Assembly (NCBI RefSeq): GCF_003334335.1
Contig: NZ_QOWQ01000182.1
DNA: 500 bases
Strand: one strand, 5' to 3'
DNA from: Escherichia coli
Lineage (GTDB): Bacteria; Pseudomonadota; Gammaproteobacteria; Enterobacterales; Enterobacteriaceae
Under the pieces are notes generated by a model, which did no database searches, was not told the DNA's origin, and worked only from the letters and a program-made list of their open reading frames with translations. The position numbers and the translations under genes are program-made. This document shows, one piece after another, positions 1 to 500 of the stretch. Position 1 is the stretch's first letter. Every line of letters begins with the position of its first letter.

Positions 1-470
1 TCCGTATCCCAGACCGGCTGCACAAAGATTTCGCCGTTAAACGCATGAACGCCCACACCTTCACGGATAAATTCCGTGAACGTGCGTTTTCCTTCCACGT
101 CGATCTCGCCAAACATCCCTTCTGCGTATTCCGACCAGGCCGCCTCCACCTCATCGACAAAGCTTTTTGCTGCGGTCTCCCGCATCCCCAGCCAGCGCCA
201 GTTCGGACGGTAGCTGATCAGAAACATATGCCCGACAATGTGATCCTTATGCAGAGCCACCGCATTAGCCGCTATTCCGTTATTGCGCACCAGATCATCT
301 GCCCGGGCATTCCCCAGACGCAACGCGGGTAGCAGGGCCGCATCGGCACTCTGCGCCGGTGGCAACCACTCAGCCATTTGCCCGCCAAATCCTGCACCGC
401 CCCCGTTGTAGCTGAGACTCTCACGAAGCGGAACGCCGTTCACATCAATCAGGACAGGCGTTCGTTTCAT
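1..470 (-). CDS. Phage portal protein, lambda gpB family; N-terminal 156 codons, 3'-partial (continues past window position 1)
   Basis: Reverse-complement translation from the ATG complementary to + 468-470 is open to the window edge: MKRTPVLIDVNGVPLRESLSYNGGGAGFGGQMAEWLPPAQSADAALLPALRLGNARADDLVRNNGIAANAVALHKDHIVGHMFLISYRPNWRWLGMRETAAKSFVDEVEAAWSEYAEGMFGEIDVEGKRTFTEFIREGVGVHAFNGEIFVQPVWDT. By-eye alignment with the lambda gpB N-terminus (recalled from memory) shows long conserved blocks: GxGFGGQ, DAALLP, GNARADDLVRNNG, AANA, LHxDHIVG, EVEAAW, KRTFT, IREGV, HAFNGExFVQ, WDT. A GGAG Shine-Dalgarno sits 7 nt upstream of the ATG. Confidence 0.9.
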   Translation of the reverse strand, partial: MKRTPVLIDVNGVPLRESLSYNGGGAGFGGQMAEWLPPAQSADAALLPALRLGNARADDLVRNNGIAANAVALHKDHIVGHMFLISYRPNWRWLGMRETAAKSFVDEVEAAWSEYAEGMFGEIDVEGKRTFTEFIREGVGVHAFNGEIFVQPVWDT

Positions 471-500
471 AACCTCACTCCCAGCGGACGACGGCGACGC
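467..500 (-). CDS. C-terminal end (10 codons plus stop) of the upstream gene, probably a gpW-like head-tail joining/head completion protein; 5'-partial
   Basis: Minus-strand frame ending at the TGA complementary to + 467-469 reads ...RRRRPLGVRL*. The arginine run followed by a short hydrophobic tail resembles the lambda gpW C-terminus (...QRRRGPAGFYV, from memory). The position immediately upstream of the portal gene and the 4-nt ATGA stop/start overlap match lambda W/B organisation. Only 10 residues are visible, so the family assignment is tentative. Confidence 0.55.
   Translation of the reverse strand, partial: RRRRPLGVRL
478..481 (-). promoter_or_regulatory. Shine-Dalgarno (GGAG, within a GGGAGTGAGG purine-rich stretch) for the portal gene
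   Basis: Minus-strand sequence 5'-GGGAGTGAGGTTATG-3' (+ 468-482); the GGAG is separated from the ATG by 7 nt. It lies inside the 3' end of the upstream coding sequence, as expected for translationally coupled genes. Confidence 0.5.

Follow-up and report, generated by a model that had tools for sequence, protein, structure and literature searches.

What does the minus strand of this 500-nucleotide stretch of Escherichia coli DNA (the window, which here always means the whole stretch) begin to encode, and to which kind of element does it belong? Reading both strands, we found one minus-strand frame that is free of stops across the entire window; from its ATG (470..468), 156 codons extend leftward as far as base 3, with window bases 1-2 forming a partial codon, the start of portal codon 157. 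The remaining two minus-strand frames are stop-rich throughout, and the GC content across the window is 50-69%. A previous sequence-only reading had placed a lambda-family portal protein of 156 residues at positions 1-470, and both coordinates and length proved correct when the frame was re-read. Our analysis leaves very little doubt that a lambda-family portal gene, in the allele known from phage 21 gene 4, starts on the minus strand just after the end of a gpW-like gene, with which it is probably coupled in translation. The 5' part of this homologue of phage 21 gene 4 and lambda B occupies 1..470 (minus strand, codons 1-156 being 470..3), and it is identified by its open frame, by profile matches, by its match to lambda gpB and by its codon-position bias.

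The family assignment is carried by several independent collections. The sole Pfam match of the frame is Phage_portal_2 (PF05136), at E = 8.3e-29 and over positions 2-121 of the 354 in the model, and the sole NCBIfam match is the portal_lambda equivalog TIGR01539; here the score of 175.8 bits exceeds the curated whole-protein cutoff (172.7 bits), even though the window can reach profile positions 1-126 of 457 only. An HMM search with a lambda-family portal profile, which had been proposed as a check, thus gave a clear answer. Among the PHROGs, phrog_21 ('portal protein') was matched at 5.2e-49, and the best match among solved structures was the lambda 'Portal protein B' (8k38 and six more entries), whose chain residues 7-159 align with query residues 5-156 at E = 2e-58. 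Given the E-values for the gpB structure and PF05136, as well as the TIGR01539 score relative to its cutoff, the similarity lies far beyond chance. The two conserved blocks on which the portal assignment was originally built are also present: the glycine-rich GxGFGGQ segment appears as GAGFGGQ at aa 25-31 (378..398, minus strand), where it aligns with GSGFGGQ of lambda gpB, and the second block, GNARADDLVRNNG at aa 53-65 (276..314, minus strand), is identical in lambda gpB. The portal claim is therefore upheld by Phage_portal_2, by portal_lambda above its cutoff, by the gpB structure and by the 99.6-100% identical records, which are annotated as portal.

Two further PHROG families match the portal frame. 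The top match, phrog_3993 (195 positions, 'unknown function'), reaches 320 bits over aa 1-156 (window 3-470, minus strand), and phrog_27056, likewise unannotated, is also found among the matches. Both seem to have been assembled from N-terminal pieces of portal proteins without ever receiving the portal name.

Annotated relatives allow the allele and its surroundings to be specified. Over its 500 bases the window agrees completely with Escherichia phage PhiR5_1 (100% identity), whereas phage 21 and a dozen related phages match it at 99.6%; in all of these phage matches a 'portal protein' and a 'head-tail joining protein W / Ad1 adaptor' are annotated beneath the matched region. Among 5426 complete E. 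coli genomes, 1861 (about a third) carry the sequence, nearly always on the chromosome, with a median of 2 places per matching genome and no more than 5, and with a single record, the NCTC9112 chromosome, matching at 100%. In PhiR5_1, NCTC9112 and phage 21, the ORF starting at the window's ATG is 1593 nt long (530 aa) with a terminal stop only, and its first 156 residues equal the window translation. The gene order in these three records is Nu1-A-W-B-C/Nu3-D-E-FI-FII-Z-U-V-G-T-H, the same as in lambda, and the products around the portal comprise the small and large terminase subunits, W, an S49 protease/scaffold (C/Nu3), a decoration protein, the major capsid protein, and FI through to the tape measure. 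The portal gene thereby follows those for the large terminase subunit and the gpW adaptor and precedes the protease/scaffold gene in the identical records. The sequence-only reading had also called the locus a phage or prophage head module, which agrees with the late head and tail operon surrounding the gene in the 99.6-100% identical annotated records. This places the window among the head-assembly genes of a lambdoid phage or prophage of E. coli, one of the phage 21 type. The portal reading is refined in that the allele is that of phage 21 (Jouyvirus) rather than lambda's own. Gene, family, structure (via lambda gpB) and role are already known, so that nothing here is new to biology; the value lies in annotating the surrounding contig, where terminase genes and cos are expected upstream on the coding strand, and genes for the protease/scaffold, decoration and capsid proteins downstream.

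The same records bear on whether the copy in the window could be a decayed prophage remnant, i.e., a portal pseudogene of the same ancestry that is truncated or broken somewhere outside the 500 bases and yields no working portal. Defective lambdoid prophages are common in E. coli, and the presence of the sequence in so large a share of the complete genomes (the 1861 of 5426 mentioned above), typically at two and at up to five places in each, counts in favor of such decay. Yet, the frame is intact within the window, and its protein is identical to that of the functional phage 21 gene. Moreover, in both 100%-identical records the ORF is whole (530 aa) and embedded in complete operons for head and tail, and one of them, PhiR5_1, was deposited as a complete phage genome. 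An in-frame stop appearing once flanking sequence is added had been named as an observation that would speak against the portal reading; none is present in the 100%-identical records, where the ORF is complete with one terminal stop, a check made by proxy. The window covers 156 of the ~530 portal codons, and intactness was accordingly judged from these identical records standing in for the flanks. On balance, a broken copy seems unlikely, and we favor an intact phage 21-type portal gene.

A few of the matching places in the complete E. coli genomes (7 of 2974) sit on plasmids rather than on chromosomes, and these may be phage-plasmids or prophage fragments borne by plasmids. The prophage of NCTC9112 that matches at 100% (NZ_LR134079.1 19049-23641) is arranged in its late region as Stx phages typically are, with, in order, a DNA methyltransferase gene, a tRNA-Ile gene, two tRNA-Arg genes, TerB-family and DUF3927 genes, and a gene for a SASA-family (NanS-p-like) esterase; no stx genes are annotated in this late region.

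The 30 bases to the right of the portal start belong to a second gene. Shifted by +1 against the portal frame, window positions 499..467 (minus strand) translate to RRRRPLGVRL followed by a stop, representing the last 10 residues of a head-tail adaptor homologous to lambda W and to the phage 21 gene 3 product (3' end at 467..500, minus strand, identified by translation and by annotated W/gp3 coding sequences). This peptide is identical to the C-terminus of the PhiR5_1 gpW, and phage 21 gp3 is one residue off: the codon at window nt 497-499 (minus strand) specifies Arg here and in PhiR5_1 (RRRRRPLGVRL) versus Cys in both phage 21 records (RCRRRPLGVRL), with the difference lying at nt 499, and the phage 21 alignments therefore end at window base 498. 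The W tails of Gifsy-1 (RRRAPVGVRL) and of lambda (RRRGPAGFYV) resemble that of the window's adaptor. The portal start codon (468..470, minus strand) is positioned as annotated in PhiR5_1, NCTC9112 and phage 21, and the TGA stop of the adaptor (469..467) overlaps it as ATGA, a 4-nt overlap between W/gp3 and portal genes that is annotated in these three records and in lambda. A GGAG ribosome-binding site (478..481, minus strand) lies within GGGAGTGAGGTTATG, 7 nt upstream of the ATG, and the equivalent bases are listed as a putative ribosome_binding_site in M81255. Because of the ATGA overlap and the GGAG at this distance, the two genes appear to be arranged for coupled translation, as far as can be judged from their layout.

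Two labels in the original record of the phage 21 head operon (M81255.1 3553-5156) deserve mention: the gene 4 product is called 'head-tail preconnector gp5', and the ribosome-binding site ahead of gene 4 is assigned to gene 3. Both appear to be slips in the deposited annotation.

Which part of the portal does the window encode? In the lambda virion, gpB comprises four domains, a wing (residues 24-249 and 368-452), a stem, a clip and a crown, and its first 23 residues are not seen in the structure (PMC10721106); B loses 21-22 aa at its N-terminal end (PMC3224144). The RefSeq lambda record NC_001416 annotates B with a 22-aa leader and a mature peptide. By alignment with this lambda leader, the window probably encodes a leader of ~19 residues (~aa 1-19, 414..470, minus strand) that would be cut off as the prohead matures. 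Nowhere else is the alignment with lambda gpB so poorly conserved, and the stretch is 3 residues shorter here. The mature part that follows, ~137 residues (3..413, minus strand), corresponds by alignment with 8k38 residues 7-159 to the first two-thirds of the first wing-domain segment, or about residues 23-159 of lambda gpB. One might imagine that such a poorly conserved leader, instead of being a dispensable pro-peptide, plays an allele-specific role, e.g., in the recognition of a cognate protease or scaffold at prohead initiation, or else that the portal of a defective-prophage copy has been kept for another use; no observation made here points to either idea. We regard both as quite improbable, and retain a leader that is probably cleaved from a conventional portal.

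Compared with known portals, the closest counterpart is the product of phage 21 gene 4 (portal or 'head-tail preconnector'; M81255, OL657228; genus Jouyvirus by record taxonomy), which has the same residue at 156 of 156 positions. Its DNA is 99.6% identical over window positions 1-498, both differences within the portal coding sequence being synonymous, and it shares with the window the start codon, the ribosome-binding site and the 4-nt gene 3 overlap. Lambda gpB (NP_040583; PDB 8k38, 8k39, 8xot and others) shares PF05136 and TIGR01539, the place in the operon after W, GxGFGGQ and GNARADDLVRNNG, and an N-terminal wing segment that aligns without gaps past residue ~20, but it is more distant, its protein being 60% identical from end to end and its DNA ~67% identical within the window. 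The terminases of lambda and 21 reportedly prefer their own proheads, via the C-terminus of the large subunit, according to work from the Feiss laboratory. A third counterpart is the portal of Gifsy-1 from Salmonella (STM2606, annotated as a lambda gpB homologue), whose DNA is 76% identical across window 7-483 and which is identical at 133 of 155 aligned residues (22 amino-acid differences). The W-B arrangement is the same in Gifsy-1, but its portal starts with GTG, as opposed to the ATG of the window, and it comes from another host genus.

The function can be proposed by homology. Lambda B is a 12-mer that interacts with the C-terminus of A and with W, Nu3, C and E (PMC3224144), and the 530-aa product, as a homologue of gpB, would likewise assemble into a ring of twelve copies at the unique portal vertex. 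Together with the protease/scaffold (the C/Nu3 homologue), this ring would nucleate the assembly of the prohead, and it would then offer a docking site to the C-terminus of the large terminase subunit. In lambda, the complex of terminase and DNA docks on the portal and pumps the DNA through the portal channel (PMC4669245); by analogy, the ring is predicted to conduct DNA inward at packaging and outward at infection. After packaging in lambda, gpW and gpFII bind beneath the portal, and then the tail joins (PMC10721106), and the ring encoded here would similarly bind a gpW adaptor and a gpFII stopper, which join the tail. For the portal of the window, the dodecameric state, the interactions with partners and the cleavage of the leader are all inferred from lambda.

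The substitution pattern among relatives at graded distance speaks to whether the 156 portal codons are translated. Relative to ECO111 5-P (98% DNA identity), all of the 10 changed codons are synonymous, and relative to PhiR12_1 (96.8%), 14 of 16 are synonymous and 2 nonsynonymous. At the larger distance of Gifsy-1 (76%), 90 of 111 differing bases fall at codon position 3 (75 synonymous and 22 nonsynonymous codon changes), as do 84 of the 164 bases that differ from lambda. Since substitutions are found mostly at third codon positions or are synonymous, the pattern identifies the portal frame as a real, translated gene under purifying selection.

This comparison also disposes of a plus-strand ORF at 45..332 (95 aa, ATG start) as a real or additional gene overlapping the portal in antisense. 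It is the longest complete ORF listed for the window, and its frame is open in Gifsy-1 and lambda too; open antisense frames are, however, common in GC-rich coding DNA. In the close relatives PhiR12_1 and ECO111 5-P (96.8-98% DNA identity) it is interrupted by an in-frame stop, its amino-acid sequence drifts freely among relatives, in contrast to the almost exclusively synonymous changes in the portal frame, and it is called in none of the annotated records (PhiR5_1, NCTC9112, phage 21). We therefore rejected it on the grounds of the stop in near-identical relatives and the lack of sequence conservation, and consider an antisense gene at this place extremely improbable.

The possibility that the frame encodes a portal of a different family (HK97, SPP1 or P22 type), or a non-portal protein sharing only motifs with gpB, might draw on the fact that the window shows no more than the N-terminal 30% of the protein, but it is practically negligible, with Phage_portal_2 and portal_lambda (the latter above its cutoff) as the sole Pfam and NCBIfam matches and with the 530-aa portal of the identical records being collinear with lambda gpB (533 aa) at 60% identity from end to end.

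Little else was detected in the window beyond the lambda-family portal gene and the adaptor end. Rfam gave no match on either strand at E <= 1, a promoter scan of the window returned no promoter-like site, and a repeat search found only short imperfect pairs, as expected by chance. On the plus strand, antisense to the portal, a terminator-like hairpin of 8 pairs is formed at 60-80 (TTCACGGA..TCCGTGAA), and a T-rich run comes after it (window 60-90 in all). One such site was found compared to 0.3 expected in shuffled sequences, which is at the level of chance, and the hairpin was set aside as a terminator.

Finally, one GenBank record seems to be misattributed. The 'Campylobacter phage CJLB-4' (MW057783.1; host C. 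jejuni, from poultry faeces) agrees with lambda at every one of the 5401 nt compared (330-5730 of the record against NC_001416 411-5811, 100.000% identity), and it looks like lambda DNA, possibly stemming from contamination or from a sequencing control, rather than a phage of Campylobacter.
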